Below, in pieces: positions 35,540 through 51,807 of a stretch of 54,818 bases of DNA. This stretch comes from a virus (lineage: Duplodnaviria; Caudoviricetes): positions 1-54,818 of IMG/VR virus record IMGVR_UViG_3300017783_000027; one strand, given 5' to 3'. Under the pieces are notes generated by a model. The model was not told the DNA's origin. It made no database searches and worked only from the letters and a program-made list of their open reading frames with translations. The position numbers were made by a program, and so were the translations under genes. Numbering within the stretch: the stretch's first letter is position 1; the number at the start of each line of letters is the position of its first letter.

Positions 35540-36324
35540 TTCCAATTATCCTTAATAAACTTGTCGTTACCTGTTATAGTTTTACCTACACCAGCAAAGT
35601 GTACGACTTTAATATTTTCGTGTACATCATCCATTATCATATAATCTGTATCAAATCTTTCCATATATATTTGATTCAATTGTAAGTTCTTTTTGTAACT
35701 ATCTGTCCATGTTCCCAACCATTCAGGTGGAAGTTTAGTTAATGTAGCATTATGTTCTTGTATTTTCCATTTGACATAGTTTTGTTCTCCATATAGTGGT
35801 ACATGAACATCACCTTTATTATAAAAATTCATTTGCCAGAATTCAGGATTTTTGATAAAATCGTCCCACACAAACTTTAAACTGCCTGATTTAAACTTAT
35901 AAAACCCACCATTAATACCTAGTTTGTTTTCCCACCACACACCGTATGTTAATAATTCTTTTTCTTTTACAGGCCAATTCAATAGTTCATCTATATTACC
36001 TGTAATAATTTGGTCAATATCCATAACAATAATATCATCACCAGGTTTTTGATTGGCAAAGTTAGGTGCAAAGAATTTTAGTTTATGCCAATGTTTTTTA
36101 ATATCTGCTAAATGATTATAAGGTAATACTGTTGCAATATCTCCAAACTGTGTTATATGATGTTGACTGGACCTTGTATCTATCAATCTACTGCCGTATT
36201 GAGTATCAGATATAACAACAAACTCAAAATCAACAGTTGAGTTTCTTTTGATACTATTGTATAGTTTTGTCACATAGTCAGGAGAATATCGGTCACCAAA
36301 ATAAACACAACAAATCTTAAGCAT
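35536..36324 (-). CDS. glycosyltransferase (GT-A, DxD)
   Basis: Y..DYV.KLYNSIKRN, WHKLKFF, MDID, INGG, GEQ.Y, VVHFAG. Confidence 0.8.
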   Translation of the reverse strand: MLKICCVYFGDRYSPDYVTKLYNSIKRNSTVDFEFVVISDTQYGSRLIDTRSSQHHITQFGDIATVLPYNHLADIKKHWHKLKFFAPNFANQKPGDDIIVMDIDQIITGNIDELLNWPVKEKELLTYGVWWENKLGINGGFYKFKSGSLKFVWDDFIKNPEFWQMNFYNKGDVHVPLYGEQNYVKWKIQEHNATLTKLPPEWLGTWTDSYKKNLQLNQIYMERFDTDYMIMDDVHENIKVVHFAGVGKTITGNDKFIKDNWK

Positions 36325-37135
36325 ATTTTCTCCAGACTGTATCAAAATCTTTATTAATTGTATGTACTAAATGTATATTATCTGGTATAAAACCTTGTTT
36401 ATCAAAATGATAATGCCAATCTTCAGGTAAAAATTGTATTGGTATTTTATGTTGTTTCAATTTAACAGCAAACAATGTTTCATTATCATAACCAAAGAAG
36501 TTTCTAATTCTCTCTGGAAATATATCACTATCATTTTTAACTTCTGTCATTAGTTCTAGGTCTTTCTTAAAACCATAAAAGTATCTAAGTCTAATTAACC
36601 ATTCTGTATTAATACCAATAATGCCTGTATTGATTACATCATTCTCTGGACTAAATCCTTTTTCAATCAACATGGCCTGAGCATTGTAATACTTTGATGT
36701 AGGACTTCTAATTGATTGTGATGTATCTGTTATTTGGTCAATTTTTTTAACTAGGTCATTATTATGTTTGATTGCAATACCTTTTTTTAAATCAAATATA
36801 TTAAAGAAACTAATTGATTTCATAGGTACAACATCAAAATCTAAATATAATATCTCATCATATTCTTTATTAAGTTCATATAATAAATGTAACTTATAGA
36901 AATTTACAATATTATAATCTGTAATTTCTGGTGGCATTGTCTTTGCAAACTGTTTATACTTTTCATCATACTCAAATAAGATAAATTCTACACCAATATC
37001 CTTGGCATACTTTTTCTTACATTCTATAAGACGTGTATAGTGTTCTTTAAATTGTGACTTTGTTTCAGAGTCAACAGGTTGGTCTAACTTGTCTGTAGGT
37101 ATATCAATATATAAACTATATATTACACGTTTCAT
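36317..37135 (-). CDS. glycosyltransferase (GT-A, DxD)
   Basis: YAKDIG, YDEILYLDFDV, INTG, DNET, LVH; start moved to MKRVIYS (ATGA overlap). Confidence 0.75.
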   Translation of the reverse strand: MKRVIYSLYIDIPTDKLDQPVDSETKSQFKEHYTRLIECKKKYAKDIGVEFILFEYDEKYKQFAKTMPPEITDYNIVNFYKLHLLYELNKEYDEILYLDFDVVPMKSISFFNIFDLKKGIAIKHNNDLVKKIDQITDTSQSIRSPTSKYYNAQAMLIEKGFSPENDVINTGIIGINTEWLIRLRYFYGFKKDLELMTEVKNDSDIFPERIRNFFGYDNETLFAVKLKQHKIPIQFLPEDWHYHFDKQGFIPDNIHLVHTINKDFDTVWRKYA

Positions 37136-37746
37136 TTTATCTTTCCTACTAAAGTATATCTGTGACCGCCTCTGTCTTTGTCTTCTAATACATCCTGTTT
37201 TAATATTTCCCATGTGTCTGGTATTTGTTCCTTAAATTGTGTTAAAGATGTAACGCAATTGGTGTGGTCATTTATATTATCGTTTGTGTGAGTTTGAAAT
37301 GCAAAATAAGTATCTTTACTCATTCTATCCCAATAAGGGTATTCTTTCATTGGTGGCATATGTTCACATGATGTATTGATAATAAGATTAGATAGTATCA
37401 TCTTTTCAGTAGGCATTTTAAATACATCTTTGTTTACAAATTCTACGTTGTCAATACCATCAAACAATCTTCTTCCCATTCTAGTAGCTCTATCGTCAAA
37501 GTCAATACCTTGTACGTACTTAACCTTTTGAGATAATACATAACCAACTATAGACATAAACCAACAACCCATAACTGTGACTGTAGAATATTTTTCAATA
37601 TATTCATCAACCATTTCTAATAGTTTACTTTTAGATTCAAACTGTATTGGACTTAAAGAATCTAATAACCTTTTTGATTGATTTAGGCCATCATTCTTAA
37701 TTTCTCTTAATACTCTTTGGAAATATTTTTCATCAAACATTATCAT
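37132..37746 (-). CDS. class I SAM-dependent methyltransferase
   Basis: VMGCWF, GIDFD, DVF, LIINTSCEHM, DHTNC. Confidence 0.7.
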   Translation of the reverse strand: MIMFDEKYFQRVLREIKNDGLNQSKRLLDSLSPIQFESKSKLLEMVDEYIEKYSTVTVMGCWFMSIVGYVLSQKVKYVQGIDFDDRATRMGRRLFDGIDNVEFVNKDVFKMPTEKMILSNLIINTSCEHMPPMKEYPYWDRMSKDTYFAFQTHTNDNINDHTNCVTSLTQFKEQIPDTWEILKQDVLEDKDRGGHRYTLVGKIK

Positions 37747-39260
37747 TTTCTAAGCACCTTACCATTTATTACTAATATATCTAGGTCTGTTTTTTTGAAC
37801 GTTTTAAATGCCTGTTGTGGTGTTTCAACAATAGGTTCTCTACAATTAAAACTAGTGTTCAATAACATTGGTATACCTGTCACTTTATAAAACTCATTGA
37901 TTAAGTCATAGAAATCAGGATTGAATTTTTTATTGACTGTTTGTATTCTTGCAGTATTATCCAAGTGTGTAACACCAGGAACCTTATCAGTTTTTACTTT
38001 ACAAATCCTAGACATATATGGACTAGGTTGATTTGTGTCAAAGTATTCTTTATAATGTTCTTCTAATACAGCAGGTGCAAATGGTCTAAAATCTTCTCTC
38101 TTTTTAATTGTATGATTGATTACATCTTTGATATTAGGATTACGTGGGTCTGCTAAAATACTTCTATTACCTAAGGCACGATTACCACTTTCTGACTTAC
38201 CATTGTACCAACCAACAATCTTGCCATCAGCAATAGATTGTGCTATATCTGTTAGGTCAACATTCTCATCTGATAGTTTATACGGCCACTCTTTACCAGC
38301 AAATACATTTGTTTTGTGTCGGTTACCATTAATTGTATAGTCAGCGTGTTGATATGTACCCAGCGCCTGTCCTTCATCACCTATCGCAGGAGGAACGTAC
38401 ACATTTTGGTATTGTTTAGTAAACTCTTCATTCATATAACCATTATATGCAACACCACCAGATAGACATATGTTCTCACAAGTCTTTAGTGGATATACAT
38501 GTTCTTTAATTTTGTCAAGTGTAAATTTCTGTAGTGTAAACGCCAAGTCTTCTTTACCATACTTCTCAATATTCAATTCTTTATGCATATGATTTGACTT
38601 CTCACGTCTCTTATCATCTGCTATCATTTCAAATGCATTGTAATAATATTCGCTATATTTACCATATGCAACTAAACCCATAAGTTTACTTGCACCTAAC
38701 GGACCGAAACCTGTTAGTTTAGACATTTGATTCCATATCCAACCAAGTGGTAACTCTTTAGATAAGTCTGTTATATTCTCATCTTTATCTACAAAGATAC
38801 ATCTATACTTAGCACCAATTCCGTCAATGGCAAGTATATCTGACTTGTCAAAACCAGAGTTTATGAAAGCATAAGTGGCATGAGATTGGTGGTGGTCAAT
38901 ATAGTATATCTCATCTTTATAGTATCTGTCAAACAACTTTTTAGGTTCATAGTCAAGTATCTCTTTATGAGCTACAAGCATACCTTTAAACAACGAATCT
39001 TTAAGGTGTCTGATACCACCATTAGTGTAGGAAAACGCCAAAATTTTATTCGGAAATTTCTCAAAATATTCTTCAACAAAATTAAAGTTTAATCTGTAAT
39101 CATCAACGTTTAATTTATCGCCCTCATTATGATGAGCATATGCGTCAACATGATAAGGTATGTTGTGTTTAAATCTAGTATATCTTTCCATTTGTTTATG
39201 AAAGACACCATCATATGTATTTTGGTCATGTAGATTTAGTGCAACGCTATATATTTTCAT
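37743..39260 (-). CDS. carbamoyltransferase (NodU/CmcH/TobZ family)
   Basis: ERYTRFKH, HHQSHA, AIDGIG, KLMGL, SGGVAYN, GDEG, RALGNRS, KREDFRPFAP, LLNTSFN. Confidence 0.93.
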   Translation of the reverse strand: MKIYSVALNLHDQNTYDGVFHKQMERYTRFKHNIPYHVDAYAHHNEGDKLNVDDYRLNFNFVEEYFEKFPNKILAFSYTNGGIRHLKDSLFKGMLVAHKEILDYEPKKLFDRYYKDEIYYIDHHQSHATYAFINSGFDKSDILAIDGIGAKYRCIFVDKDENITDLSKELPLGWIWNQMSKLTGFGPLGASKLMGLVAYGKYSEYYYNAFEMIADDKRREKSNHMHKELNIEKYGKEDLAFTLQKFTLDKIKEHVYPLKTCENICLSGGVAYNGYMNEEFTKQYQNVYVPPAIGDEGQALGTYQHADYTINGNRHKTNVFAGKEWPYKLSDENVDLTDIAQSIADGKIVGWYNGKSESGNRALGNRSILADPRNPNIKDVINHTIKKREDFRPFAPAVLEEHYKEYFDTNQPSPYMSRICKVKTDKVPGVTHLDNTARIQTVNKKFNPDFYDLINEFYKVTGIPMLLNTSFNCREPIVETPQQAFKTFKKTDLDILVINGKVLRK

Positions 39261-39879
39261 GTAATATTCCTGCTATTTTTTCTTGCCCTTTTTTGTTAGG
39301 GTGCCTATCTATTTCAGATATAAAATCACTTTGTTGTATTAAGTCACTCATAGTCCAACCACCTATTTGTGGTTCGCCAGAATAACCCATAAAATTAAGT
39401 TTGTCTTGGTAATGATTACTCAATGACGATTTTATACCATCTAATTTGTTTACACCTGGATTGTTAAAAGGGTGTAACATATGAAACTGTTTTAGTGGCA
39501 AATTATGATATGCACACACAGTCTGTAAACTGTAAAAATATCTTAAATTTCTTTTAATAAAATAATCAACATCACCTCTATTATCATGCATTATATTTTT
39601 TCTTCGGCCATCTTGCTCAAAGTCACTTCTACAACCTTTTGACCAACCAGCAATAACTAAAGCAATATCATTTACATCTAACTCTACAATCTTATCTAAT
39701 AATGAAGTATAAATGTATTGATTACCTGAGCCAGACCATGCTACGTTAACTAAATTAAGTTCTAGTTTTTCAGCAAGTATTTCAGGCCATTTTTTCCATG
39801 ATGTATCCATTTCTGGATGATGTACAGATTCAAAATTAGGGTCTGTCCAAGAACATCCACTAACTAGTAACGTTTTCAC
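39247..39879 (-). CDS. SGNH/GDSL-like hydrolase or acyltransferase
   Basis: GCSWT block I, N.A.SGSGN, DRHP block V. Confidence 0.65.
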   Translation of the reverse strand: MKTLLVSGCSWTDPNFESVHHPEMDTSWKKWPEILAEKLELNLVNVAWSGSGNQYIYTSLLDKIVELDVNDIALVIAGWSKGCRSDFEQDGRRKNIMHDNRGDVDYFIKRNLRYFYSLQTVCAYHNLPLKQFHMLHPFNNPGVNKLDGIKSSLSNHYQDKLNFMGYSGEPQIGGWTMSDLIQQSDFISEIDRHPNKKGQEKIAGILHENI

Positions 39880-40876
39880 TGGCTGCCTCCTCTATTGCTT
39901 TTACTAATACGTCATTATTCTCTTTATTCTCTGGTGATGTTAGACAGTAACTTTCTCTTTTTAGATAAGCACTACCACCATCTACTATACTATCGTCTCT
40001 GAGAAATATCATTTTCTTTTTGAAGTATTTGCATTCCATCATTAGTCTTGGTGCTGGGTCAAATCCTTCTTTAACGTAAACATACGTATCAAAAGAACCT
40101 AGTATATTTTTAACTGGTACTGTCACGTTGTTTAAATCTGGATTGTGATAGTTGTTATTTCTAACTAACTTATCACTTAACGTTAAGATTGCATGTGATT
40201 TAAAGTTCTTAATTGTGGAGACAGGTTTGTATTCAAATCCTTGGCCTTCATAAAAAGGTAATTCGGTAACTTTTCTTTCGCCGAACATAATGTGGTCTGG
40301 ATTTTCTAGGTGTATATACTTTTCAATTGACGCATAGTATTTTTCATTTACACCATTGAATAGATAATCATATTGTATCTCATCTTTCCATGGTTTGTAC
40401 ATAGAGAAGTTTATTACTTTTTTAAAGTGTTCTCCTTCGCCCTCTGGATAAACATCATAATCACATAAATCCCATATCTTTTTAGGTGACCAATATGCTA
40501 CTGCTCTAGGATAATCAACAGGATGATTTTCTGAATATACGGCAACAATTTTATTAGAGAATAATAAATGTAACGATAGTAACTGATTACGTTTATATTC
40601 TTTTCTAACTTTATGTGGTAGAGTTAACATACTTCTACCCATAATCATTGTTATCTCATCATTTTTAGGTAGATAGTTATTTACGATAACGTTATTTGCA
40701 TGACCATATTTTCGTATCAGTGCATTTCTATATTCAGAAACAATACCTCTAGGATGTGGTACACAAACAACTTGAGCGTCAATACCAATTGACCTTAAAT
40801 AAGTACAATGTTCATAACTATAATACAATAGTCCATCACAAGGTTTACTAGTACATACTATATTAACTTTTACCAT
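39860..40876 (-). CDS. hypothetical protein (GT-B-like possible)
   Basis: 338 aa in the operon; FD.YVY....FDPAPRL.MEC motif reminiscent of GT-B donor-binding segment. Confidence 0.55.
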   Translation of the reverse strand: MVKVNIVCTSKPCDGLLYYSYEHCTYLRSIGIDAQVVCVPHPRGIVSEYRNALIRKYGHANNVIVNNYLPKNDEITMIMGRSMLTLPHKVRKEYKRNQLLSLHLLFSNKIVAVYSENHPVDYPRAVAYWSPKKIWDLCDYDVYPEGEGEHFKKVINFSMYKPWKDEIQYDYLFNGVNEKYYASIEKYIHLENPDHIMFGERKVTELPFYEGQGFEYKPVSTIKNFKSHAILTLSDKLVRNNNYHNPDLNNVTVPVKNILGSFDTYVYVKEGFDPAPRLMMECKYFKKKMIFLRDDSIVDGGSAYLKRESYCLTSPENKENNDVLVKAIEEAASENVTS

Positions 40877-41679
40877 ACTAAATCAAATGCCCATTTTCTC
40901 TCATAACACCAAAAACATTTATGACATTCTCTGGTGTAGTTATCTGTATCTTTTGCTGTACCTGTACAAGAACGTGTTATTTCAAATAAATCCATAATGT
41001 TATTTTGTTTGTAAATATCTGCTACAAACTTTTTATCTACATTGAGAAATGGTTTGTAACGGTTGTATTTTAATCTAACTCTATTTGTATAATGATTACG
41101 TCTATCTTCTCCTTTATGACCAAAAGTTTCTAGTGCCTCTGGTGGTGGATTACCAGTAAGACCATCTAACATCATAGGTTTATGAAACTTCTTAACCATA
41201 TGTTCACATATTTCATGTATTAAGATTATCTTAGTCATTTGCTTAATACTTAAATTTTTATATTCATCTTTATCTTTTGATAATTTAGGGTCATCTGATA
41301 CACCATCAATAGCCTTTTGTGCTTCAGGCCAATGTTTTTCGTCTCTATCATTGAAATCAAAAGTTTCAATGTCATGTAGATTTGCATGTGGAAATTTATT
41401 TTGAATATACTTAACTATCTTATCAGCTGCGATAGCGTCTTTAAGAGCATTGTTACCAATATCTCTTGCAGTAAAAGGATAGTAATGTAAATTTGGATAA
41501 TGTTTACAAGAAAGATATAATGCAGAGGCAGAATCAGCACCACCTGAAAGTGATACAATTATGTTTTCTGGAAGGCCTTCTGAATTAAGAACGAGGCCTT
41601 TTTTAGATATTGGCGAGGCGTTCATCATCTGTTCCATGTCATAGAATGGTATAGTAATATTATTATATGTTACGTTCAT
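40870..41679 (-). CDS. QueC-like N-type ATP pyrophosphatase
   Basis: SLSGGADS PP-loop, PF..DK, TRSC...CHKCFWCYER zinc site; start moved to MNVTY. Confidence 0.8.
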   Translation of the reverse strand: MNVTYNNITIPFYDMEQMMNASPISKKGLVLNSEGLPENIIVSLSGGADSASALYLSCKHYPNLHYYPFTARDIGNNALKDAIAADKIVKYIQNKFPHANLHDIETFDFNDRDEKHWPEAQKAIDGVSDDPKLSKDKDEYKNLSIKQMTKIILIHEICEHMVKKFHKPMMLDGLTGNPPPEALETFGHKGEDRRNHYTNRVRLKYNRYKPFLNVDKKFVADIYKQNNIMDLFEITRSCTGTAKDTDNYTRECHKCFWCYERKWAFDLVW

Positions 41680-41702
41680 TTCACTTCTCAATTATGTACT
41701 AC

Positions 41703-41721
41703 TATTTATACGTCATAAATA
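41703..41721. promoter_or_regulatory. back-to-back late promoters (TATAAATA on minus 41703-41710; CATAAATA on plus 41714-41721)
   Basis: Boxes face the modification operon and the divergent oxygenase. Confidence 0.8.
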
Positions 41722-41726
41722 TACGT

Positions 41727-42512
41727 ATGTTTAAGAATGAAGCGAATAGGTTTTTTAATGCTAGTGATGATAATTACCAAGACTTTGGTTGGCATGAGTT
41801 TACATTAGAAGAGTTAGGTTTACCACCAGCAGAAGATATATTAAAAGGTGTCAAGGCAATTGAGAAAGAAGTAGGTCTAATTGGTTGGCGAACAAAGGAT
41901 AGTACAAACGAAAACTATAAAGGATTTGGTATTACATATAACCCTACATTTCATAAAGACGAAAATCCACACCATCAAGTATTTGGCTCAAGATTATCTA
42001 CTCAAACATTTGCACAAGACGACCAAGAACATGAACAGCTTGAAAATACATATTATGATACATTTGGTTTTAGAAAGAGAACACCAGAGGTTGACAAACA
42101 TCTAGGTTTTTTATTAGATAGATTTGCCTTTCATGTTTCACGTAGTAGGGTTGGTTATGTATTTGGTTATGGTTTAGAACCAAATCGCAAAGGTTGGCAT
42201 ATTGATGAACCACCACAAATGCTATTAAGAGTTAATATACCTTTACAAACTAGTGATGAATATGTTATGCAGTGGAAAGATAACACTTACAAACTAGAAG
42301 TGGGAAAAGCATATCTCTGGAATACAAGAATTAAACATAGACCAACTATCACACGAAAAGTAGAGACAAAAGAACCTAGAATTAACTTGGTAATTGGTCT
42401 AACACCTTGGTTAACCTACGACCCCGAAATGGATAAATATAGTAAAAATGAGTTATTTGGAAAATCAATCAAAGAGATTGTTGAGAATAAATTATTTGTA
42501 AAAGGAGATTAA
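41727..42512 (+). CDS. aspartyl/asparaginyl beta-hydroxylase-like 2OG-Fe(II) oxygenase
   Basis: RSRV, GWHIDE, RVNIPLQT, LEVGKAYLWNT..KHR, RINLV; start moved to MFKNEA. Confidence 0.8.
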   Translation: MFKNEANRFFNASDDNYQDFGWHEFTLEELGLPPAEDILKGVKAIEKEVGLIGWRTKDSTNENYKGFGITYNPTFHKDENPHHQVFGSRLSTQTFAQDDQEHEQLENTYYDTFGFRKRTPEVDKHLGFLLDRFAFHVSRSRVGYVFGYGLEPNRKGWHIDEPPQMLLRVNIPLQTSDEYVMQWKDNTYKLEVGKAYLWNTRIKHRPTITRKVETKEPRINLVIGLTPWLTYDPEMDKYSKNELFGKSIKEIVENKLFVKGD

Positions 42513-43068: not shown

Positions 43069-43410
43069 ATGGCAGCTATAGCTAACTTATCGGTAGACCA
43101 AGGGGCAACATTTACCTCTGACGTAACAGTCAAAGACGCTAATGGTAATCCTTTTGATTTAAGTGGTTATACAGCACAAGCAAAATTAGCAAAAGGATAC
43201 AATAGTGTCAATACTAGAGTATCTTTCACTACTACAGTAGCCGCAGACGCTACCACAGGTATTGTTTCCTTACAGTTATCTAAAACTCAAACCGAGGCAT
43301 TAGATGATACCAGATACGTTTACGATTTAGAAATTACACAAACCAGTAGCGGAAACGTTACTAGAGTGATTGAAGGCATAATTACAGTTAGACCACAAGT
43401 TTCAGTATAA
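43069..43410 (+). CDS. BppU-N-like Ig-fold fibre anchoring protein
   Basis: DQGATF, DLSGYT, L..QT..L..RYVYD.E, RVIEG. Confidence 0.75.
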   Translation: MAAIANLSVDQGATFTSDVTVKDANGNPFDLSGYTAQAKLAKGYNSVNTRVSFTTTVAADATTGIVSLQLSKTQTEALDDTRYVYDLEITQTSSGNVTRVIEGIITVRPQVSV

Positions 43411-43426
43411 TACAACTCCTTTTCAT

Positions 43427-43434
43427 TATAAATA
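43427..43434 (+). promoter_or_regulatory. T4-type late promoter TATAAATA
   Basis: Exact consensus. Confidence 0.8.
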
Positions 43435-43453
43435 GTACAAAGAGGGAGCAATA

Positions 43454-43702
43454 ATGCCTGATATTACAGCAAAAATTAACGTTAACACATCAGCGGGTCC
43501 AGATAAAGTATCAGTTACTTTGCCATCGGCTCAGGCAGCAGCCAACAGTTCCTTACAATTAAAGTCGTTGGGTGACGTAGACGCAAGTACATTGAATGAT
43601 GGTGCGTTATTACAATATAGAGCAAGCGATGGTAAATTTGTAACAAGAACAGAAATTGTTACAACAACAGGAACGCTGTTATTTAACTGTGGGAGTTTTT
43701 AA
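43454..43702 (+). CDS. short fibre linker protein
   Basis: L..LGDVD...DGALLQY fibre motif; C-terminal FNCGSF. Confidence 0.7.
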   Translation: MPDITAKINVNTSAGPDKVSVTLPSAQAAANSSLQLKSLGDVDASTLNDGALLQYRASDGKFVTRTEIVTTTGTLLFNCGSF

Positions 43703-43709
43703 ATAAGAT

Positions 43710-45422
43710 ATGGCAACAGTAATTCAGATAAAAAGAAGTTCGGGTACTACTAGTCCCGCTACTCTAAAACAAGGTGAATTAGCTTACACATACGGTTCAG
43801 GTACCCAAGCCAATAACGGTGATAGAATATTTTTAGGTACAGGTTCAGTTGATGGTAATGGTGACGCAACAAGTATTGATATTATCGGTGGTAAGTATTT
43901 TACATCTATATTAGACCACGTTCAAGGAACATTAACGGCTAACTCTGCTCTAATAGTAGATTCAAATAGTGCGATTGACCAATTTATTGTTGGTACTTCT
44001 GCTACAGTCGGTGGTACAATTAAATTTAACGAGGGTACAAATAACGGTTCAAACTTTATTGCCCTTAAATCGCCTAACGCAGTTTCGGCTACTACAACAT
44101 TCGTATTACCAGACGGCGATGGTTCTCCAGGACAATTCTTAAAAACAGATGGTGCTGGTAATTTAGATTTTGCAACTGTAAACCAGTTTATTGATTTAGC
44201 AGGTGACACAGGAACAGATACATACAATACGGCAGAAACTTTAACATTTGCCGGTGGTGCTGGTCTTGAAGCAGTTGTAACAGACAACACAATTACATAC
44301 AATGCAACAGCATTAACAAATTCAAATTTATCTGGTAGTGCGGCTATATCAAATGCTAACTTAGCAAATCCGACAACTACAATTGGTTCATCTACATTAA
44401 CATTAGGTGCAACTACAACTGACATTGCAGGTATAACTTCATTAGTTGTTGATGATATTACGACAAACGGTCAAACTATATCTACAACAGCAAGTAACAA
44501 AGATATTAATTTATCGCCACACGGTACAGGTTCAGTAATTGTACCATCAGGTTACGAAGACAGAGCAGGTTTTCAATCACAGTCACTTGCTAACAAAGCA
44601 TATGTTGACCAAGTTGCTCAAGGCCTTGACGCTAAACCATCTGCTAAAGCGGCTTCTACAGCAAACTTATCAGCGACATATGATAATGGTACTGCTGGTG
44701 TCGGCGCAACATTAACAAACTCTGGCTCACAAGCTGCATTAACACTTGACGGTGTAACTTTAGTTGTTGCAGATAGAATATTAATTAAAGACCAAACAAC
44801 AGCTGCTCAAAACGGTATCTATGTTGTAACTACAGTTGGTGATGGTTCATCAAATTGGGTTTTAACAAGAGCAACTCCGGAAGACCAACCTGCTGAATTA
44901 TCAGGTGGTTCATTCGTATTCGTTGAAGAAGGTACTGCTGGTGGTAATAACGGTTATGTATTTACTCACACAGGTGCTCCTACATTTGGTACAACAGCAT
45001 TAGATGTATCACAGTTTTCAGGTGCTGGGCAAGTTATTGCTGGTGACGCATTATCAAAAACAGGTAATACACTTAATGTAGAAACAGATAACTCATCTAT
45101 TGAAGTTAACTCAGACGCATTAAGAGTTAAAGCATTAGGTATTACAGACGCCATGTTAGCAGGCTCAATTTCAAGTGCTAAACTAACTGACCCATTATAC
45201 TTTACAGACGAAAGTTCTACACAAGGTAATGTAAGATTAGGTGGTACTTTAGAATTTCTTGCTGGCGAGGGTATTAATACAGTAGCAAGTGGTAACACAA
45301 TTCAAATCGTTGGTGAATTAGCAAGTACATCAAATAAAGGTGTTGCTTCATTTCATTCAGACAACTTTACAGTAACATCTGGTGTAGTTACAATTTCAAC
45401 AGTTGACGGCGGAACATATTAA
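43710..45422 (+). CDS. tail fibre protein
   Basis: N-terminal IQIKRS...L..GELA (Mtd-N-like); ANKAYVD; DRILIKDQ...QNGIY; C-terminal VDGGTY. Confidence 0.8.
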   Translation: MATVIQIKRSSGTTSPATLKQGELAYTYGSGTQANNGDRIFLGTGSVDGNGDATSIDIIGGKYFTSILDHVQGTLTANSALIVDSNSAIDQFIVGTSATVGGTIKFNEGTNNGSNFIALKSPNAVSATTTFVLPDGDGSPGQFLKTDGAGNLDFATVNQFIDLAGDTGTDTYNTAETLTFAGGAGLEAVVTDNTITYNATALTNSNLSGSAAISNANLANPTTTIGSSTLTLGATTTDIAGITSLVVDDITTNGQTISTTASNKDINLSPHGTGSVIVPSGYEDRAGFQSQSLANKAYVDQVAQGLDAKPSAKAASTANLSATYDNGTAGVGATLTNSGSQAALTLDGVTLVVADRILIKDQTTAAQNGIYVVTTVGDGSSNWVLTRATPEDQPAELSGGSFVFVEEGTAGGNNGYVFTHTGAPTFGTTALDVSQFSGAGQVIAGDALSKTGNTLNVETDNSSIEVNSDALRVKALGITDAMLAGSISSAKLTDPLYFTDESSTQGNVRLGGTLEFLAGEGINTVASGNTIQIVGELASTSNKGVASFHSDNFTVTSGVVTISTVDGGTY

Positions 45423-45424
45423 CA

Positions 45425-45856
45425 ATGGCAACAGTTCTTAAACCAAAAAGAAGTGAAACAAGTTTAAGTTTACCTGCTACTAGTGATTTAGAAGTCGGCG
45501 AATTGGCAATGAACATTGCTGATGGTAAGTTTTATACTAAAACATCAAGCAACGTTGTCAAAGAAATGGGTGGTGCCGGTTCTGCTATTCTAAATGACGT
45601 AACAGCAAACGGAAATATTACCAACCAAGATATTATTCTAAACGGTTCAGACCTAGTATTTGAAGGTAATTTAGCAAACGCATTTGAAACAAATTTAACG
45701 GCTCTTGAGCCAACTTCTGATAGGGTAATCAGTTTACCAAACGTTTCAGGAACAATAATTACAACCGGAAATTTAACAACTGACGGAAGTACAACAGGAG
45801 ACGCATTAGTAGGTGAGGGTGACGCCCTTGCTTATGCAATCGTCTTTGGAGGATAA
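45425..45856 (+). CDS. short fibre/adaptor protein
   Basis: N-terminal KPKRS...L.VGELA; FEG..FET..PT.DR.I.LP module; C-terminal AIVFGG. Confidence 0.75.
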   Translation: MATVLKPKRSETSLSLPATSDLEVGELAMNIADGKFYTKTSSNVVKEMGGAGSAILNDVTANGNITNQDIILNGSDLVFEGNLANAFETNLTALEPTSDRVISLPNVSGTIITTGNLTTDGSTTGDALVGEGDALAYAIVFGG

Positions 45857-45864
45857 TATAAACT

Positions 45865-46215
45865 ATGGCTTCATCATTTAAGAACGCAGGAATGACAGTG
45901 GCAACAACTGACAACAGTTCAGCAAATGTATATACGGCAAGTACCAATGGTGGTGCCGTTATTCATGCTGTATATATTTCAAATAAACATCCAACTAACT
46001 ATGCAAACGTTGATGTAAAAGTGACCACAGACGGTGGTAGTACATTTCATCACATAGGAAAGTCTCTAATTGTTGAACCAGAGAACACTTTACAGTTGGA
46101 TAAACCAATTAACATGGAACAAAACGATATTTTAAGAATAGTTGCAGAATTAAACTCTGACAGTTCAACTCCGGATGTTGAGTGTTTTGCAAGTATTTTG
46201 GAAGTAACTGTATAA
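45865..46215 (+). CDS. small beta-sandwich virion adaptor (paralog of 50028..50387)
   Basis: Aligns by eye with 50028..50387 (VYISNK/VTITNK; MEQNDILR/LEEGDQIR). Confidence 0.7.
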   Translation: MASSFKNAGMTVATTDNSSANVYTASTNGGAVIHAVYISNKHPTNYANVDVKVTTDGGSTFHHIGKSLIVEPENTLQLDKPINMEQNDILRIVAELNSDSSTPDVECFASILEVTV

Positions 46216-46220
46216 ACTAT

Positions 46221-46228
46221 TATAAATA
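46221..46228 (+). promoter_or_regulatory. T4-type late promoter TATAAATA
   Basis: Exact consensus. Confidence 0.8.
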
Positions 46229-46253
46229 ATACGTAAGAGGGAAGAACAAAAGT

Positions 46254-46658
46254 ATGAGTTATTTAATTGCAAAGAAAAATGATACTTCAATTTTTGGTTC
46301 AGACCAAGCAGCCTTTCACGGTTTACGAGTTGACCGAGAGGGTGCAAAGGACGGCTTATTAACATACAGTAAAGTTCTACTTTCTTCTGGTGAATCAGTT
46401 ACACTAGCAGATTACGGTGTACCTTATAATGGAATTGATGACGCAAATGCTGGTACAGCAAATGCATATATCAGAGGTTCTTCAACAGAATTAGATGATA
46501 GAAGAACACCAGGTGGTAGAAAATATGATGGTGCTAGATTTGATGGTAATAAATTAACATACTACATGAACGCTGATGGTTTTCTAGTAGCAAGATATTT
46601 CGCTGAATATACATATAACAGTGGTTCAGCTGGACAAACAAGAAACTGGACGGAGTAA
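46254..46658 (+). CDS. virion-associated protein preceding the long fibre
   Basis: FHGLR..G.L.Y, YY...DGFLVAR. Confidence 0.65.
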   Translation: MSYLIAKKNDTSIFGSDQAAFHGLRVDREGAKDGLLTYSKVLLSSGESVTLADYGVPYNGIDDANAGTANAYIRGSSTELDDRRTPGGRKYDGARFDGNKLTYYMNADGFLVARYFAEYTYNSGSAGQTRNWTE

Positions 46659-46677
46659 AAAAATTAAAGGATAACAA

Positions 46678-49600
46678 ATGGCAGATTTTGTATTAGGTAG
46701 ACTTAAATTCGTATGGAAAGGTGATTGGGCAACGTCAACGGCTTATATTGTTGATGACGTAGTAAAATACGGTGGTAATACATTTGTATGTAAATTCAAC
46801 CATACTTCAAGTGCAACATTCGAATCCGATTTAACAGCAAGTCCTGTTAGGTGGGAAAAAATGGTCTCTGGTCAAGACTACAAAGGCACATACGCAAATT
46901 CAACATACTATAAAGTAGATGACGTAGTAAAATACGGAGCAAGTTTATGGATATGTACAACAGCACACACAAGTGGTGCAACACTAGATGAAACTAAATT
47001 TTCAATCTATGTACCAGGTTTAGAGTTTGAGGACACATGGTCGTCTTCTACTCAATATCAATCAGGTGATATTGTAAACTATGGTGGTTACACTTATGTT
47101 GCTCAACAACAAAATTTAAACGTAGTTCCTACAGACGCTAGCGCTCAGTGGGAAGCATTAACAACAGGTTTCAAACTTACAGGTGTTTATTCTGCCTCAA
47201 CTGCCTATAAAACTGGAGATGTTGTTAAGTACGGTGGTAACACATACGTATGTAAAGCAGACGGATTAACAGCAGGTCAATATTTACCAACAAGTACATC
47301 ACACTTTGATTTACTAGTTGAAGGTATTTCACTAAAAGGTGTTTGGGACGTAAACACATCATATAAAATTGGTGAATCAGTAATTTACTTAAACAGTTCA
47401 TACTTAGCAGTAATTGATAACAACGGTCAAACGCCAGTAGTTGGTGGCGACAGTGGTTATTGGAAACTGTTTACACAAGGTGACCCAGCAGGTATTTTAA
47501 CCACACAAGGTGACTTAATTATTAGGGACGCCGTTGGCGCAACTAGATTAGGAATTGGTCGTGCTGGTGACAGACTTGTTGTAAGTGCTAACGGAAATCA
47601 ATTAGAGTATCAAACACCTACGGCTTCAAACGAAATTTACGTTGCGCCTTCAGGTTCAGATACAAATCCAGGAACAGAATCACTACCTTACAAAACTTTG
47701 AAAAAGGCAGCTTCAGTTGCTCAGACAAATGGTATTTCTCAAATTTCAGGTGTTGCAGGCGGTACCGGTGGTACTCCAAACACATACAGAAATGTTGCGA
47801 TTACAGGTGGTTCATCTTCAGGTGCTACAGCAGACGTAGTAACAGACGGTTCATCTGTAGCTTCAGTTACAATCGTTAATAACGGTACAGGTTGGTCAGA
47901 AGGAAATACTGCTACAATCGCCGGTGCAAATATCGGTGGTGCAACAGACGTAACATTCAGTGTTGAAACAGTACAATTTGGTGATACAATTCGTATGCAA
48001 GGTGGTACTTATGAAGAAGTATTCCCAATTATTATTCCATCAGGTACAACTCTATTCGGTGACTCATTAAGAGGTACTAGAATTGAACCGGCAGCTGGTA
48101 GTTCAACTTCTGTAGCAACTATTGATACAGTGGGAGCTAATGACGCAAGTAGAACACCAGGAACATATACAAATGTTGCTACTACTTCAGCAGGTTCAGG
48201 AACAGGATTAAAAGTAACAGTAGTTGTTGATGGTTCATCAGCGATTACAGTAGCAGTAACTTATGGTGGTGCTAATTATGCAGATAACGAAGTTATTACA
48301 ATTGCAGACACAGTTTTAGGTAACGGTGGTGGTGCTAACTTAACTTGCCAAGTTGCAACTTTACATAATAACAATGCATGTTCAATGTTACTTGTTAACA
48401 ACAGTACATACATTTCATTTATGACATTCCAAGGAATGACAACAGGCGCTAATGTTTGTTCACTTGACCCTAGTGGTTCAATTACAACTGCTTCTCCATA
48501 CATTCACAACTGTACTTCTGTAAACACAGGTACAACTGGTATGTTGATTGACGGATTTGCACAAGCAAGTGGTAACAAATCAATGGTTGCCAATGACTTT
48601 ACACAGATTAACTCAGACGGTACTGGAGTCCTTGCGACTAACGGTGGTCGTGCAGAGTTAGTATCAGTATTTACTTACTACTGTGATAAAGGTTTCCATG
48701 CAACAACAGGTGGTACGCTTAGAGCGCTTAACTGTTCAAACGCATACGGAGAATATGGTGCTCTTGCAGACGGTGTTACTTCAACAGAAACACCAGGTGA
48801 AGTTCAAGCAAGAGGTCATCAACTTAAATACGTTAAATTATCAGGTAATATTGCTTCTGCTACACCAGCAGCCGGCGATAGTTTAACAGGTGCTACTTCA
48901 GGTGCAACTGCTACCTTATTAGGACATGTTGCTTCAACTTTCAAACTTAAATTTGAAAACTTATCAGGCACATTCTTACCTAATGAAACAGTTAACGTAA
49001 CAGGTTCAAGTTCATATAATTTTGTAACAACAAAACTTGACGCTAACCTAGTTGATGAAGCAACAAAAACAATTACAGGTATTACATCTGCTAACCCAGC
49101 AGTAGTAACATCTGCTAATCACGGATTACAAAACGGTACTAAAATTGTTATTAGTGGCGTAGTTGGTATGACAGAAGTAAACACAAATACTTACTATGTA
49201 CAAAACACAGCAACAAACACATTTAGTTTATCATCAAGTGATGACCCGACAGTTACAACTAACGTAGATAGTTCAGCATTTACAGCATACACTTCAGGTG
49301 GTGTAATTACTCCTAAAAATGTAGTTACAGGTCAAACAGGATATCTTTTCCATGTTGACAGTACATCTTCTTTCCTAGGAACAGCAGGTGCAATGGGAGT
49401 TGGACAAAACTTCCAGTTTGCAGGTGATTCACAATATTATCGTGTTACGGCTGCGACAGAAGAAGACACAACTAATAGAAGAGCTTTAGTTGCAATTACT
49501 CCTGAAAGAACATCACCAGTTCCTGATAATACAGAGGCTGATGTAACAAAACTATTCTCAAACATTCGTCTAACAGGTCACGACTTCCTATCAATTGGTA

Positions 49601-49998
49601 CTGGTTCATTTACAGACACCAACTATCCAAATAGTGTAGGTGCAACGCAACCTTATGACCAATCAAGAGAAACTACTGAACAAAACGGTGGTCGTGTGTA
49701 CTACACTTCTACTGACCACTTAGGTAACTTTAGAGTTGGTTCGCAGTTTAAGATTGACCAGGCAACTGGTACTGCTACACTAAACGCAGACGCATTTGAC
49801 CTTTCTGGTTTGACAGAGTTACAACTTGGTTCAATTGGTGCTCAAATCGGTGCAACAATTAACGAATTTAGTACAGACGGTACACTATCAGGTAATTCTG
49901 ATACGGCTGTTCCAACGGAACAAGCAGTTAAGACTTATGTAGATGGTAACTCGTTCTCAACTGGTAAAGGGATTGCAATGGCAATCGTTTTTGGTTAA
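46678..49998 (+). CDS. long tail fibre / tailspike with carbohydrate-binding repeats and pectin-lyase-like region
   Basis: N-terminal W/Y...T.Y...DVV.YGG repeats; YVAPSGSD.N.GT..PYKT; GDSLR; SPYI.NCT; C-terminal AIVFG. Confidence 0.8.
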   Translation: MADFVLGRLKFVWKGDWATSTAYIVDDVVKYGGNTFVCKFNHTSSATFESDLTASPVRWEKMVSGQDYKGTYANSTYYKVDDVVKYGASLWICTTAHTSGATLDETKFSIYVPGLEFEDTWSSSTQYQSGDIVNYGGYTYVAQQQNLNVVPTDASAQWEALTTGFKLTGVYSASTAYKTGDVVKYGGNTYVCKADGLTAGQYLPTSTSHFDLLVEGISLKGVWDVNTSYKIGESVIYLNSSYLAVIDNNGQTPVVGGDSGYWKLFTQGDPAGILTTQGDLIIRDAVGATRLGIGRAGDRLVVSANGNQLEYQTPTASNEIYVAPSGSDTNPGTESLPYKTLKKAASVAQTNGISQISGVAGGTGGTPNTYRNVAITGGSSSGATADVVTDGSSVASVTIVNNGTGWSEGNTATIAGANIGGATDVTFSVETVQFGDTIRMQGGTYEEVFPIIIPSGTTLFGDSLRGTRIEPAAGSSTSVATIDTVGANDASRTPGTYTNVATTSAGSGTGLKVTVVVDGSSAITVAVTYGGANYADNEVITIADTVLGNGGGANLTCQVATLHNNNACSMLLVNNSTYISFMTFQGMTTGANVCSLDPSGSITTASPYIHNCTSVNTGTTGMLIDGFAQASGNKSMVANDFTQINSDGTGVLATNGGRAELVSVFTYYCDKGFHATTGGTLRALNCSNAYGEYGALADGVTSTETPGEVQARGHQLKYVKLSGNIASATPAAGDSLTGATSGATATLLGHVASTFKLKFENLSGTFLPNETVNVTGSSSYNFVTTKLDANLVDEATKTITGITSANPAVVTSANHGLQNGTKIVISGVVGMTEVNTNTYYVQNTATNTFSLSSSDDPTVTTNVDSSAFTAYTSGGVITPKNVVTGQTGYLFHVDSTSSFLGTAGAMGVGQNFQFAGDSQYYRVTAATEEDTTNRRALVAITPERTSPVPDNTEADVTKLFSNIRLTGHDFLSIGTGSFTDTNYPNSVGATQPYDQSRETTEQNGGRVYYTSTDHLGNFRVGSQFKIDQATGTATLNADAFDLSGLTELQLGSIGAQIGATINEFSTDGTLSGNSDTAVPTEQAVKTYVDGNSFSTGKGIAMAIVFG
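46714..47465 (+). repeat. about five CBM5/12-like coding repeats of roughly 50 aa
   Basis: GDWATSTAY.VDDVVKYGG, GTYANSTYY.VDDVVKYG, DTWSSSTQY..GDIVNYGG, GVYSASTAY.TGDVVKYGG, GVWDVNTSY.IGESV. Confidence 0.75.
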
Positions 49999-50027
49999 CA
50001 ATAAATATAAGCAGAGGAAAATAACAA

Positions 50028-50387
50028 ATGGCAATTCCAAATATAGTAAACGTAGCAACCATTAATGGTAAAACTGATTCTGGTGAATTGAATACAACAT
50101 ATACAACTTCACTAGTAACAAATGCTGGGTCTTCTGGAAAGTCTTACAAAATTAATAATGTAACAATTACTAATAAGGCTGGTTCAGACACAACATTCAG
50201 AGTATCATTCTATGATGGTTCTACCGATAGATTTATAGCCTACAACGTTAACTGTCCCGCTAATACAGTGGTTTTCGTAACAGATAAAAACTCTAGTTTC
50301 TATCTGGAAGAAGGCGACCAAATTAGAGGTGGTGCAGCTACTAACAGTAGACTTGATTGGCTTGTTTCTTACGAAATCATTTCGTAG
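50028..50387 (+). CDS. small beta-sandwich virion adaptor (paralog of 45865..46215)
   Basis: MA.PNIVNV..I.G; YLEEGD; follows an AIVFG-ending gene. Confidence 0.7.
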   Translation: MAIPNIVNVATINGKTDSGELNTTYTTSLVTNAGSSGKSYKINNVTITNKAGSDTTFRVSFYDGSTDRFIAYNVNCPANTVVFVTDKNSSFYLEEGDQIRGGAATNSRLDWLVSYEIIS

Positions 50388-50418
50388 TATAAGTTAAACA
50401 GATTTAGAGGAGAGATTA

Positions 50419-51807
50419 ATGGCTACAGGACCAATATACGGCAGAAAATCGTCACGAAGAATGAATGGTTCCATTCTTGGTTCTCATATGCATTCCACGT
50501 GGCACAGAAAATTATCAAATGTTCATAGAACGGATGGTACGGACGGCTATGCGCCTCACTCTGGACTATTTGACATGAGACAAGTATTGTCTATGACTAT
50601 GAATGATGGTTATGTTCCTTTTGGTTCAGGTGTTAATACAACTTCTACAATTGCACACCACACTTATCCTAACGTAGTAAATTATACTAGTGAAATTTTT
50701 GGTGGTGGTTCAGGACAAGGTGTTAGAGACGTAAACTCAGGTCCTAGTAACGCATACAGTCAGTACAGTCACGGTGGTGGTAATAAAAATCAATCAAATG
50801 GTAATTCAGAATCAGCGGCTAGTGCTATGGTTTATTTTCACGATGGAAATTACAACTGGTCTAAAGCAAGTGAATACTACAATGGTGGATACGGTAGTTA
50901 TGGTACACAAGGTTTTAGAGACAGGACTTCAGCAGCTGCTAACTGGAGATACAGACAAATTATTGCCTTAACTTATACAGGTGGTGGTTACAAAAGTGGT
51001 TCTCCTTGGAGACAAGTACATAGAAGTATGCATAGTACAGACCAAACTACAAACTTAGGTACTATTGCCGACCATGCAGGTTCTTATATTGCCGGAGCAA
51101 ATAACGCTACTACATTCTTTTTATGGTCTACACCTACAGATAACGCAAACTCAACTGCTTCGACAAGAACATCAGCAGTTCACATGTTCACTGATACAGG
51201 TAAGTCACATAACAGTAACTACGATTTGTATAATTCAAGACAAGATTTATCTTCTTCTCAAAAAGAGTTAGACTTAGCATTTCAAACAGGCTCAGGTTCA
51301 TCTAACTTTGAGGTGTTTAATCTTATAACAGAAACAAAATTCACACAGTTTGGTGGTAACTTAACATCAACTGGTTCAGCATTTTCTGATAAAGATAATG
51401 GTTATCATTGGGACGATGGTTCTGGTTGTAAAATTAATTACTATTCTTTTTCACATCAATCCACAACTCATTGGTCTAATCACGGACAACAAAAAGGTAT
51501 CAACTCTAAAAACAGAATTGGTTATTGTGGTAACGAAGGAGATTACAACGGTGGTTATAACTACAGAAGATGGAATTTAACAAACGATACTAACATTGGT
51601 ACAGTTGGTAAAATTGAGCAAAACATGGGTGAAGAAAATTACGGAATGGGACAAGACTGGCAGTATATGATTGGTAACTATGATGGTTCTCAGAATAACG
51701 AAAACCATAAACTGTACTATGCTACAGATACAGGTACTACTGTTTCAGGATTAAGTCCTACTGCTAATGCAGGTCAAAGTTCAGGTCACTGTGCCTGGAG
51801 AGGTTAA
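50419..51807 (+). CDS. Gly/Ser/Asn/His-rich virion protein with putative beta-propeller C-terminus
   Basis: Repeated blade-like units (Y.GGG, GY..., .TDT) about every 40 aa in the C-terminal half. Confidence 0.6.
   Translation: MATGPIYGRKSSRRMNGSILGSHMHSTWHRKLSNVHRTDGTDGYAPHSGLFDMRQVLSMTMNDGYVPFGSGVNTTSTIAHHTYPNVVNYTSEIFGGGSGQGVRDVNSGPSNAYSQYSHGGGNKNQSNGNSESAASAMVYFHDGNYNWSKASEYYNGGYGSYGTQGFRDRTSAAANWRYRQIIALTYTGGGYKSGSPWRQVHRSMHSTDQTTNLGTIADHAGSYIAGANNATTFFLWSTPTDNANSTASTRTSAVHMFTDTGKSHNSNYDLYNSRQDLSSSQKELDLAFQTGSGSSNFEVFNLITETKFTQFGGNLTSTGSAFSDKDNGYHWDDGSGCKINYYSFSHQSTTHWSNHGQQKGINSKNRIGYCGNEGDYNGGYNYRRWNLTNDTNIGTVGKIEQNMGEENYGMGQDWQYMIGNYDGSQNNENHKLYYATDTGTTVSGLSPTANAGQSSGHCAWRG

Follow-up and report, generated by a model that had tools for sequence, protein, structure and literature searches.

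Two kinds of portable terminal docking modules probably order the tail-fibre proteins of a pelagimyophage-like virus

The tail-fibre proteins encoded by nine genes (g1 to g9, all on the plus strand, positions 43069-51807) of the viral record IMGVR_UViG_3300017783_000027 probably assemble head-to-tail in the order of their genes, via two kinds of portable terminal docking modules and probably into two fibres. The window, that is the whole stretch of DNA analyzed, comprises all 54,818 bases of this IMG/VR record, which is a pelagimyophage-like fragment with an estimated completeness of 39%; the fibre genes form its last cluster (~8.7 kb). At joint I, the C-terminal motif h-[ND]-x-G-x-[FY]-COOH of one trimer (g2, g3) would dock into the N-terminal domain of the next protein (g3, g4), which has the consensus M..(I/V)..K(R)S...P...L..GE(L/I)A, and this joint would be used twice in tandem (g2->g3->g4). 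At joint II, a hydrophobic C-terminal tag, in which small (Ala) and large residues alternate and which ends in G or GG (GK.IAMAIVFG, LAYAIVFGG, ALAIALG), would be captured by a jelly-roll protein of ~105-125 amino acids (aa) encoded directly downstream (g5, g8). Capture would probably involve an added beta strand, as the alternating residues suggest a strand with one bulky and one flat face. The jelly-roll would then cap the shaft and probably recruit the hypervariable next protein (g6, g9) via the N-terminal GGIIG-like or h-I-G peptide of the latter, which would be an exchangeable host-specific tip.

The adjacency on which joint II is based was assessed in both directions. For the best 80 IMG/VR loci with a g8-like gene, the open reading frame (ORF) ending just upstream was inspected, and a tag-bearing ORF was located upstream in all 80. 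The canonical tag GK.IA...[IV]F[GS](G) occurs in 70 of these loci, 68 found by regular expression and two (L049, L082) in which the carrier ORF is cut by the locus edge. Nine loci harbor variant tags (PVIMGMIF, PVIAGMIF, FT[IV]AMSIVFGA, KVVAFSILFGR, KVIALSILFG, KMFAISLIFGG, QVIAFSLVL and KSIAFSIIFGL). At L056 the distance between tag ORF and g8-like gene is 357 nt, with one ORF in between, and the apparent exceptions L061 and L062 were resolved as tag-bearing ORFs of 55 and 64 aa. The strict tag pattern fits 70 of the 93 ORFs directly upstream of g8-like genes versus 3 of 3198 other ORFs, and these three belong to further modules or to L056. For the reverse direction, IMG/VR was scanned for DNA encoding GKAIAMAIVFG, which yielded at least 80 loci. 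The peptide is positioned 0-1 residue from the stop codon in all 80 loci listed, and a g8-like gene (hmmsearch E <= 2.5e-22) follows within 700 nt in all 70 evaluable loci, i.e. those in which the DNA extends at least 380 nt downstream. Each of the 79 g5-type loci that could be evaluated is preceded by an ORF of 100-193 aa that starts with M.TVIKPKRS and ends with [LI]A[YLF][SAG]I[VA]FG[GSN]. The first-pass annotation of this DNA, which described the paired motifs, had named a lack of adjacency enrichment in other genomes as the outcome that would speak against it. Since the enrichment is near-absolute in both directions and extends over many unrelated phages, this objection falls away.

Proteins that bear the tag vary in length between 55 and ~1320 aa and have only their last ~12 residues in common. 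Because unrelated fibre bodies carry an identical tag, the earlier proposal of swappable segments is supported; bodies and tips would be exchanged by recombination at the joints. A natural control is provided by the nearest named relative of the window, Pelagibacter phage Mosig EXVC030M (77% nucleotide identity across g1-g3). The Mosig homologue of g4 ends with ALAYSIVFGG and is followed by a g5 homologue, and its g7 homologue has a different C-terminal domain, lacks the tag and is not followed by a g8.

An explanation at the level of DNA would dispense with protein docking, the conserved ends being by-products of cassette linkage, of recombination hot spots, or of translational coupling through a Shine-Dalgarno sequence in the upstream coding end. 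Neighbouring genes are indeed co-inherited and the gaps between tag ORF and jelly-roll gene are short (-1 to 36 nt). Moreover, the last two codons of g4, GGA GGA (45848-45856), form a Shine-Dalgarno-like GGAGGA 8 nt before the start of g5. GGA is also the commonest final tag codon (52 of 95 spellings), a preference that the Shine-Dalgarno overlap may explain, and the terminal glycine may serve both coding and translational coupling. However, conservation resides in the peptide and not in the DNA. The identical 11-mer is spelled in 95 DNA versions whose pairwise nucleotide identity averages 0.81, and each position draws on its full set of synonymous codons. This saturation of synonymous sites indicates selection on the peptide. 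A Shine-Dalgarno sequence would account for no more than one or two glycines at the very end and not for 11 residues. In addition, recombination has moved the tag onto unrelated bodies but has never parted it from the jelly-roll (0/70), and for joint I the genetics and biochemistry of T4 show a real protein-protein joint, as covered in the relevant part of a review (PMC3004832). A purely DNA-level origin is thus very improbable. Chance likeness is excluded by the counts and retains a negligible probability: each motif occurs only twice in the window, the peptides are short, and FNCGSF and VDGGTY share just [ND].G.[FY], but the background is 3/3198 for the tag and 14/8090 for the plug of joint I, whereas the adjacencies reach 70/70, 79/79 and 80/80 and include every named phage fetched for either joint. 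Two further readings of the tag were rejected. Consistent in-frame read-through into the jelly-roll is ruled out by the gene gaps, which occur in all three phases, and a membrane anchor by the hydrophobic stretch of only ~9 residues and its obligate coupling to the jelly-roll gene.

The joint II rule extends to named phages and to several tag classes. A tag precedes a g8-type gene in DSL-LC04 (IAMAMIFGF), podophage HTVC033P (IAMAIVFG), Bellamy (IALSMVFG) and S-SKS1 (PIMMGMIF). A third large class combines a ..ALAIALG tag with a jelly-roll starting with MANTFKNA and is found in pelagipodophage HTVC010P, cyanomyophage S-TIM5, roseophage CRP-9, Melnitz-3 and locus L013. Delftia phage PhiW-14 (LIWAIVMG) and Bordetella phage PHB04 (IEYAIIFGG) likewise harbor a tag before a jelly-roll. 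The rule holds in five of five phages (HTVC010P, S-TIM5, CRP-9, PhiW-14 and PHB04), and it is also obeyed by Melnitz-3 with two modules, by S-B05 and by divergent members of the jelly-roll family (L013, L040, L038, L095, L121, L166 and L184). The tag PVI.GMIF is always accompanied by the jelly-roll N-arm variant PNLK[SN]PTTI (S-SKS1, L024, L062). Across podo-, sipho- and myophages, further tag classes are matched by further subfamilies of the jelly-roll. Such matched classes would allow two fibres to assemble in one cell without cross-talk. The tag strings AMAIVFG, AIAMAIVF and IAMAIVFG do not occur in the full-text literature searched, and papers on DSL-LC04 and HMO-2011-type phages contained no mention of lectin, intramolecular chaperone, tail fiber or structural protein.

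The proteins that follow the two tags, g5 and g8, share a beta-sandwich fold and are distantly paralogous. Their pairwise similarity is marginal (BLASTP E 0.015). A profile of 41 g8-family sequences finds g5 (hhalign 72%; E 7.2e-5 in the window), and the two family profiles match each other over 79 columns (hhalign 95.5%, E 1.4e-8). AlphaFold2 models of g5 and g8, with predicted local distance difference test (pLDDT) values of 84.4 and 89.3, are both nine-strand beta jelly-rolls and retrieve the same set of viral proteins of ~105-120 aa from BFVD, with template modelling (TM) scores of ~0.8. The paralogy is concluded from the matching profiles, the shared fold and the shared BFVD neighbours. 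The first-pass annotation had described the AYAIVFGG end of g4 and the AMAIVFG end of g7 as each preceding one of two paralogous beta-sandwich proteins of 116 and 119 aa, with which hhalign and AlphaFold2 agree. The family is large, with 124 homologues of g8 at E <= 1e-3, at least 536 g8-type stretches confirmed out of 599 candidates in IMG/VR and at least 402 g5-type stretches. Neither g5 nor g8 matches a PHROG family at E <= 0.01, and Pfam returned only sub-threshold noise. The g8 profile reached no better than E 0.43 against PDB sequences. Foldseek against the PDB gave TM scores of 0.44-0.56 and only a generic single jelly-roll. In the comparison with trimeric jelly-rolls of the TNF/C1q or cement-protein type, the best matches of g8 by VIA-align (wide) were 7dou_4 (Z 9.3, root-mean-square deviation 4.1, 104 aligned residues) and C1q heads (Z ~7), where Z 7-8 is typical for unrelated models. 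Thus no specific solved relative was found via Foldseek or VIA-align (best Z 9.3). Searches of the ESM Atlas (viral clusters only) and by tblastn with the S-B05 jelly-roll led to nothing but 'hypothetical protein' labels.

The jelly-roll is far more conserved than both of its neighbouring genes, which fits an adaptor or cap whose sole targets would be the tag and, probably, the N-terminal peptide of the protein encoded next. The N-terminal arm of g8 is strongly conserved, yet it was modelled with low confidence in the AlphaFold2 monomer; being poorly ordered there, it may contribute to the contact with the tag. Genes downstream of g8-like genes vary extremely in length (64-960 aa). A GGIIG-like N-terminal motif occurs in 63 of the 127 unique genes after the jelly-roll versus 98 of 4318 background ORFs, and many of the others start with a looser [RK].[IL][IL]G or with MP[YH]IGN. 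In the window, g9 (MATGPIYGRK) and g6 (MSYLIAKK) fit the loose pattern only. N-termini of the form M[AS]YL[VI].K or MAKLGYV recur in genes downstream of g5 homologues, and the Mosig counterpart of g6 differs in length (208 aa).

The main alternative to such an adaptor is that the jelly-roll is a dedicated assembly chaperone, a 'detachable foldon' that would grip three C-terminal tags, set their register and start the folding of the trimer from its C-terminus. It would then leave or stay only as a cap, and the downstream protein, not linked to it, would be a component of a fibre or of the baseplate in its own right. This alternative shares the binding step with the docking reading and differs on retention of the jelly-roll and on whether it is linked to the protein that comes next. 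The gene of a fibre chaperone classically follows directly after that of the fibre, on whose C-terminus the chaperone acts, as exemplified by T4 gp38 in the review cited above (PMC3004832), and a conserved jelly-roll beside variable bodies is what would be expected of a general folding helper that reads only the tag. The GGIIG-like motif in just 63 of 127 downstream genes and a tag-like ORF without jelly-roll in Melnitz-3 also fit a chaperone, which nevertheless leaves the enrichment of this motif over the background (63/127 vs 98/4318) unexplained. Furthermore, Pfam and PHROG scans revealed no similarity of g5 or g8 to the known chaperone or adhesin families Tfa, gp38 and S74, and homologues or structural neighbours from S-SCSM1, S-TIM5, MaMV-DC and HTVC010P are labelled 'virion structural protein'. 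These labels hint that the jelly-roll stays in the particle; the S-SCSM1 study, in the portion consulted, included virion mass spectrometry (PMC9602691). The chaperone is therefore regarded as an unlikely, though the most serious, alternative.

The arrangement resembles the T4 gp38 chaperone, the T2/S16-type gp38 adhesin and Tfa of Mu and lambda in that a small protein is encoded directly after a fibre and acts, or is located, on its C-terminal end. The T4 gene order 37-38 and the roles of gp38 are described in the corresponding section of PMC3004832, and downstream-encoded partners of tail-fibre tips are also treated in the abstracts of PMC3157838 and PMC6957217. Both g5 and g8 are located directly downstream of the fibre gene that they would serve. 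In contrast to Tfa and gp38, the partner in the window is a single jelly-roll, shows much stronger conservation than the fibres before it, and itself precedes a hypervariable protein. Due to this last difference, an adaptor fits better than an adhesin. A Peptidase_S74/endosialidase chaperone domain was not detected in g4 (no Pfam family at E <= 0.1); the labels 'peptidase S74' and 'intramolecular chaperone' on the Mosig homologue of g4 and on the DSL-LC04 tag carrier come from the deposited records, and Pfam did not confirm them for g4.

Joint I is well grounded by homology and by experiments on T4. Both g2 and g3 end in [ND]-x-G-x-[FY], and the respective next genes, g3 and g4, begin with a gp37-type N-terminal domain. 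As noted in the first-pass annotation, genes ending in FNCGSF and VDGGTY each precede a MATV..KRS gene; the coordinates and peptides match the ORF list, and the N-termini of g3 and g4 align at E 2e-4. Residues 8-75 of g4 match phrog_1699, 'long tail fiber protein distal subunit' (E 5.5e-9), and a tblastn search with residues 1-60 of g4 matched 562 phage records, mostly gp37 of T-even-like phages. The N-terminus of T4 gp37 shows the same K-R-S...P...L..GELA pattern. Thus the socket domain of g3 and g4 is homologous to gp37 N-termini. In T4, gp36 ends with DFGYY and gp37 comes next; trimeric gp36 binds the N-terminal region of gp37, as stated in the pertinent section of the review by Leiman et al. 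(PMC3004832). Gene order would equal assembly order in the window, as it does in T4, and the joint has a C-terminal pentapeptide in common (DFGYY in T4, DYGTF in AbTZA1, DFGSY in KMI10, NCGSF and DGGTY in the window), which may itself form the contact. The window differs from T4 in that the joint is used twice in series, in that the connector g2 has 82 aa compared with 221 aa of gp36, and in that the third member, g4, is an adaptor of 143 aa that switches to the other joint type. No gp34 or gp35 family was found in PHROG scans of the nine genes; no search dedicated to these two proteins was made in this 39% complete record. In the portions of the literature consulted no statement of a terminal pentapeptide rule was found.

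A plug before a socket gene was located in six further named phages. The plugs are LDYGTF in AbTZA1, IDFGSY in KMI10, LDFGTF in WSPA, IDGGTF in S-B05, VNGGSF and then IDGGTF in P-HM1, and LNGGTF and then IDGGTYS in Melnitz-3. The background was taken from ORFs of the tag loci, which had been collected for a different purpose. The plug pattern fits 14 of 8090 of these ORFs, and the 11 unique plug-ending ORFs from outside the window comprise eight directly before a socket gene, one that precedes it after an inserted ORF of 92 aa, and two spurious ORFs. A scan of IMG/VR with the joint I N-terminal domain gave only close g2-g3 orthologues and is not an independent test, so that the tag loci and the named phages serve as such. 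Bodies of g2-like connectors diverge down to 19-36% identity with the terminal motif retained. An unrelated contig, L062, displays the full order of g1-like gene, plug protein (93 aa), protein with socket and plug (358 aa), g4-like protein with socket and tag (64 aa), jelly-roll and a protein of 549 aa.

Several relatives harbor an ORF of 68-92 aa inserted between plug gene and socket gene (L001 14352-14561 in Mosig, L368 2356-2562 in P-HM1, L371 2200-2436 in S-B05, and L157 ~4978-5256). It looks helical or coiled-coil by eye, and its S-B05 copy itself ends with DGGTFE; this ORF may help in assembly or provide an additional link. The window lacks it, the gap between g3 and g4 being only 2 nt. 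The third member of the joint I chain in P-HM1 (L368 2501-5137) is a very large protein annotated as 'gp7 baseplate wedge subunit' (record 70324-77601). As it starts with a gp37-type socket domain, this label may be a misnomer for a fibre protein.

The first-pass annotation had placed all nine products in one long or branched appendage. This was not supported: no junction motif links g6 to g7, and the cluster reads more naturally as two chains, g1/g2-g3-g4-g5-g6 (chain A) and g7-g8-g9 (chain B). The two-chain layout is probable also because the genome harbors two tag/jelly-roll classes (LAYAIVFGG with g5, GKGIAMAIVFG with g8), which would keep the fibres apart. The probable distal end of chain A is g6, and g9 is the probable distal, perhaps receptor-binding, end of chain B. 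As for the plug-and-socket interfaces proposed earlier, the one at the MATV..KRS genes has an experimental precedent in T4 gp36-gp37 (PMC3004832, in the part dealing with this joint), whereas binding between the AIVFG tag and the jelly-roll is deduced.

Several observations weigh against head-to-tail assembly through these joints. The binding of the tag to the jelly-roll is an inferred step. Nothing was found that links g6 to g7, or g7 to the baseplate. The fold is uninformative on function, as it is a generic single jelly-roll without a specific solved relative, and the 'virion structural protein' labels may stem from the annotation of whole modules and not from proteomics. Only about half of the downstream genes start with a GGIIG-like motif. 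Two exceptions to the adjacency occur: a Melnitz-3 ORF of 71 aa (L367 4064-4279) ends with ITFAIALG and is followed by a neck gene and no jelly-roll, which makes it the one clear partnerless tag-like end (two jelly-roll modules lie 9-13 kb upstream), and a weak jelly-roll match in HMO-2011 has no hydrophobic tag upstream. Fused forms of g8 were absent among proteins of 210-2000 aa; this is weak evidence, but it means that no Rosetta-stone support comes from fusions of tag carrier and jelly-roll. Mutual information between tag positions and g8 columns was highest for N-arm column 9 (normalised value 0.87) in an underpowered analysis and is not used as evidence, because 112 of 150 pairs share the same tag and few lineages drive the signal. 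The match of tag and jelly-roll classes could partly reflect a co-inherited two-gene cassette rather than co-evolution of an interface. A complex prediction with three copies of g8 (alignment A1) and three of the last 40 residues of g7 (alignment A2) scored 0.24 against a mark of 0.32 in a run without controls and weighs neither way. The features of the cluster are listed in Table 1.

Table 1. Genes of the fibre cluster and their terminal modules in the window.
Feature	Position	Strand	Evidence and remarks
g1, Ig-like protein, 113 aa	43069..43410	+	phrog_1084, E 2.2e-28; phrog_3304, E 3.7e-21
g2, small connector, 82 aa, ends FNCGSF	43454..43702	+	C-terminal plug; role would be that of T4 gp36
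Joint I plug of g2, NCGSF then stop codon	43685..43699	+	[FLI]N[CGA]G[SNAQT]F ends 79/79 IMG/VR orthologues with upstream ORF
g3, fibre segment, 570 aa, starts MATVIQIKRSSGTTSPATLKQGELA, ends VDGGTY	43710..45422	+	phrog_15769, residues 1-104, E 2e-31
g3 gp37-type N-terminal socket, ~residues 1-30	43710-43799	+	part of g3
g3 C-terminal plug DGGTY	45405-45419	+	orthologues keep [VI]DG[GESD][TS][FY]
g4, adaptor segment, 143 aa, starts MATVLKPKRSETSLSLPATSDLEVGELA, ends AYAIVFGG	45425..45856	+	N-terminus matches phrog_1699, E 5.5e-9
g4 gp37-type N-terminal socket	45425-45514	+	PHROGs 'long tail fiber protein distal subunit'
g4 class C joint II tag LAYAIVFGG	45827-45853	+	same tag class upstream in 79/79 evaluable g5-type loci
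g5, jelly-roll, 116 aa	45865..46215	+	AlphaFold2 pLDDT 84.4; hhalign to g8 family 95.5%; A1 profile E 7.2e-5 in the window
g6, variable protein after g5, 134 aa	46254..46658	+	phrog_8997, E 2.8e-10
g7, fibre, 1106 aa, ends AMAIVFG	46678..49998	+	PF02839, E 9.4e-23; phrog_9851, E 2.8e-204
g7 class A joint II tag TGKGIAMAIVFG (GKGIAMAIVFG)	49960-49995	+	C-terminal end of g7
g8, jelly-roll, 119 aa, conserved N-terminal arm MA.PNIVNVATI	50028..50387	+	AlphaFold2 pLDDT 89.3; 124 homologues
g9, variable protein after g8, 462 aa, starts MATGPIYGRK	50419..51807	+	phrog_1417, E 2.7e-44

The opening gene of the g1-g2-g3 block is conserved and keeps its position in Mosig, P-HM1, Melnitz-3 and L062. It is related to the T5 collar protein p132 ('L-shaped tail fiber protein assembly'); its match to p132 in PDB 7qg9 is weak (E 0.27). 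The central domain of g3 (residues 289-430, 44574-44999) matches PDB 9efk 'orf22' at E 7.8e-26 and is the sole part of the cluster with a close solved relative. The N-terminus of g7 (46678-47500) harbors five CBM5/12-like repeats (PF02839, E 9.4e-23), and its residues 809-878 (~49100-49310) an E1_FCCH-like domain (E 1.7e-10), both of which are unusual at a proximal fibre end.

Upstream of the cluster, the window contains T4-like baseplate genes and a VrlC-like ORF of 2040 aa (24538-30660), followed by a minus-strand auxiliary block. This layout matches the 'host recognition cluster' of pelagimyophages, in which, according to the portion of the report consulted, tail-fibre proteins were not identifiable (PMC7029224). 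An opposite-strand block of auxiliary genes separates baseplate from fibre genes (34021-41691, minus strand, and 41667-42512); the block encodes a carbamoyltransferase-like ORF of 505 aa, and an Asp/Arg hydroxylase-like gene (PF05118, E 3.7e-5) is located near it. The VrlC-like ORF encodes a giant baseplate-associated protein with a tag-like hydrophobic end, MRGIALAV (~30640-30657); its counterpart in Melnitz-3 (L377 181-726) ends with LRAIALAT just before a tag/jelly-roll module. The baseplate-wedge ('gp7'-like) ORF at 17486-20059 ends with SFDNTVTKFDKTTRTFDDTTV, directly ahead of a gp9/10-like gene whose connector N-terminus (20092-21657, phrog_677) lies outside the fibre cluster. The first-pass annotation had singled out the FD ends of this protein. 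Their position before the gp9/10-like gene was confirmed; the three FD dipeptides are spaced by 8 and 7 residues and not by 2 as proposed, and no evidence of any significance of these repeats was found. The 41-kb record IMGVR_UViG_3300020421_000053 (L007/L287), whose g8 and g5 are 100% and 97% identical to the copies in the window, stems from a near-identical relative or from the same phage population, of which it would be an overlapping assembly.

In chaperone-usher pili, donor-strand complementation employs a strand supplied by another polypeptide. The alternating small and large hydrophobic residues of the joint II tag resemble such a donated strand. A similar principle operates in the chain-like fibres of podophages A1002 and GP4, where beta-sheet augmentation, the strand coming from another polypeptide, joins the subunits into a string, as reported in the part of PMC13730344 consulted. 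The proteins are unrelated to those of the window, where strand donation is suggested by the residue pattern only. In Klebsiella podophages (KP32, K11, KP34) a branching domain of the receptor-binding protein RBP1 and a conserved docking peptide of RBP2 are described (PMC13352976; see also PMC6872550). There, too, an exchangeable receptor-binding protein is mounted on a conserved partner by way of a short, conserved peptide at a terminus, whose portability lets swaps work across phages. However, the Klebsiella peptide is N-terminal on RBP2 and docks into a domain of RBP1, whereas the peptide described here is C-terminal and would dock to a small protein encoded separately. The two families are unrelated, and the phages described here infect bacteria of marine and fresh waters. 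In g2-g9, Pfam and PHROG gave no match to a T4gp10-like branching domain, and the likeness to the Klebsiella system is one of function only. Joint I extends the joint of the T4 distal half-fibre at the level of a member. Joint II falls outside all these families; it has no Pfam or PHROG family, no PDB relative by sequence and only a generic jelly-roll fold, and it would be a new, widespread docking module.

Tail fibres decide the host, and the fibre genes of the most abundant marine phages (pelagiphages, cyanophages, OM43 and roseobacter phages) are mostly annotated as 'hypothetical'. If the sequence grammar described here is true, assembly order could be read directly from metagenomic contigs, the distal host-specifying protein could be picked as the product of the gene after the jelly-roll, and the sites at which modules exchange could be predicted. 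Joint I would generalise the T4 gp36-gp37 joint to a repeatable connector, and joint II would bring in a new family of docking modules that counts hundreds of members (at least 536 g8-type and 402 g5-type IMG/VR stretches). It is further suggested, tentatively, that tag, jelly-roll of ~110-120 aa and GGIIG-like peptide form a widespread, previously unnamed three-part 'snap fastener' that mounts hypervariable receptor-binding proteins on conserved shafts, with orthogonal classes (GKAIAMAIVFG, LAYAIVFGG, ALAIALG, PVI.GMIF) acting as an assembly code. Such a fastener would be used by myo-, podo- and siphophages of SAR11, OM43, cyanobacteria, roseobacters, Delftia, Bordetella and others. The code would stop mis-assembly of the two or more fibres of a virion and set natural breakpoints for the exchange of host range.

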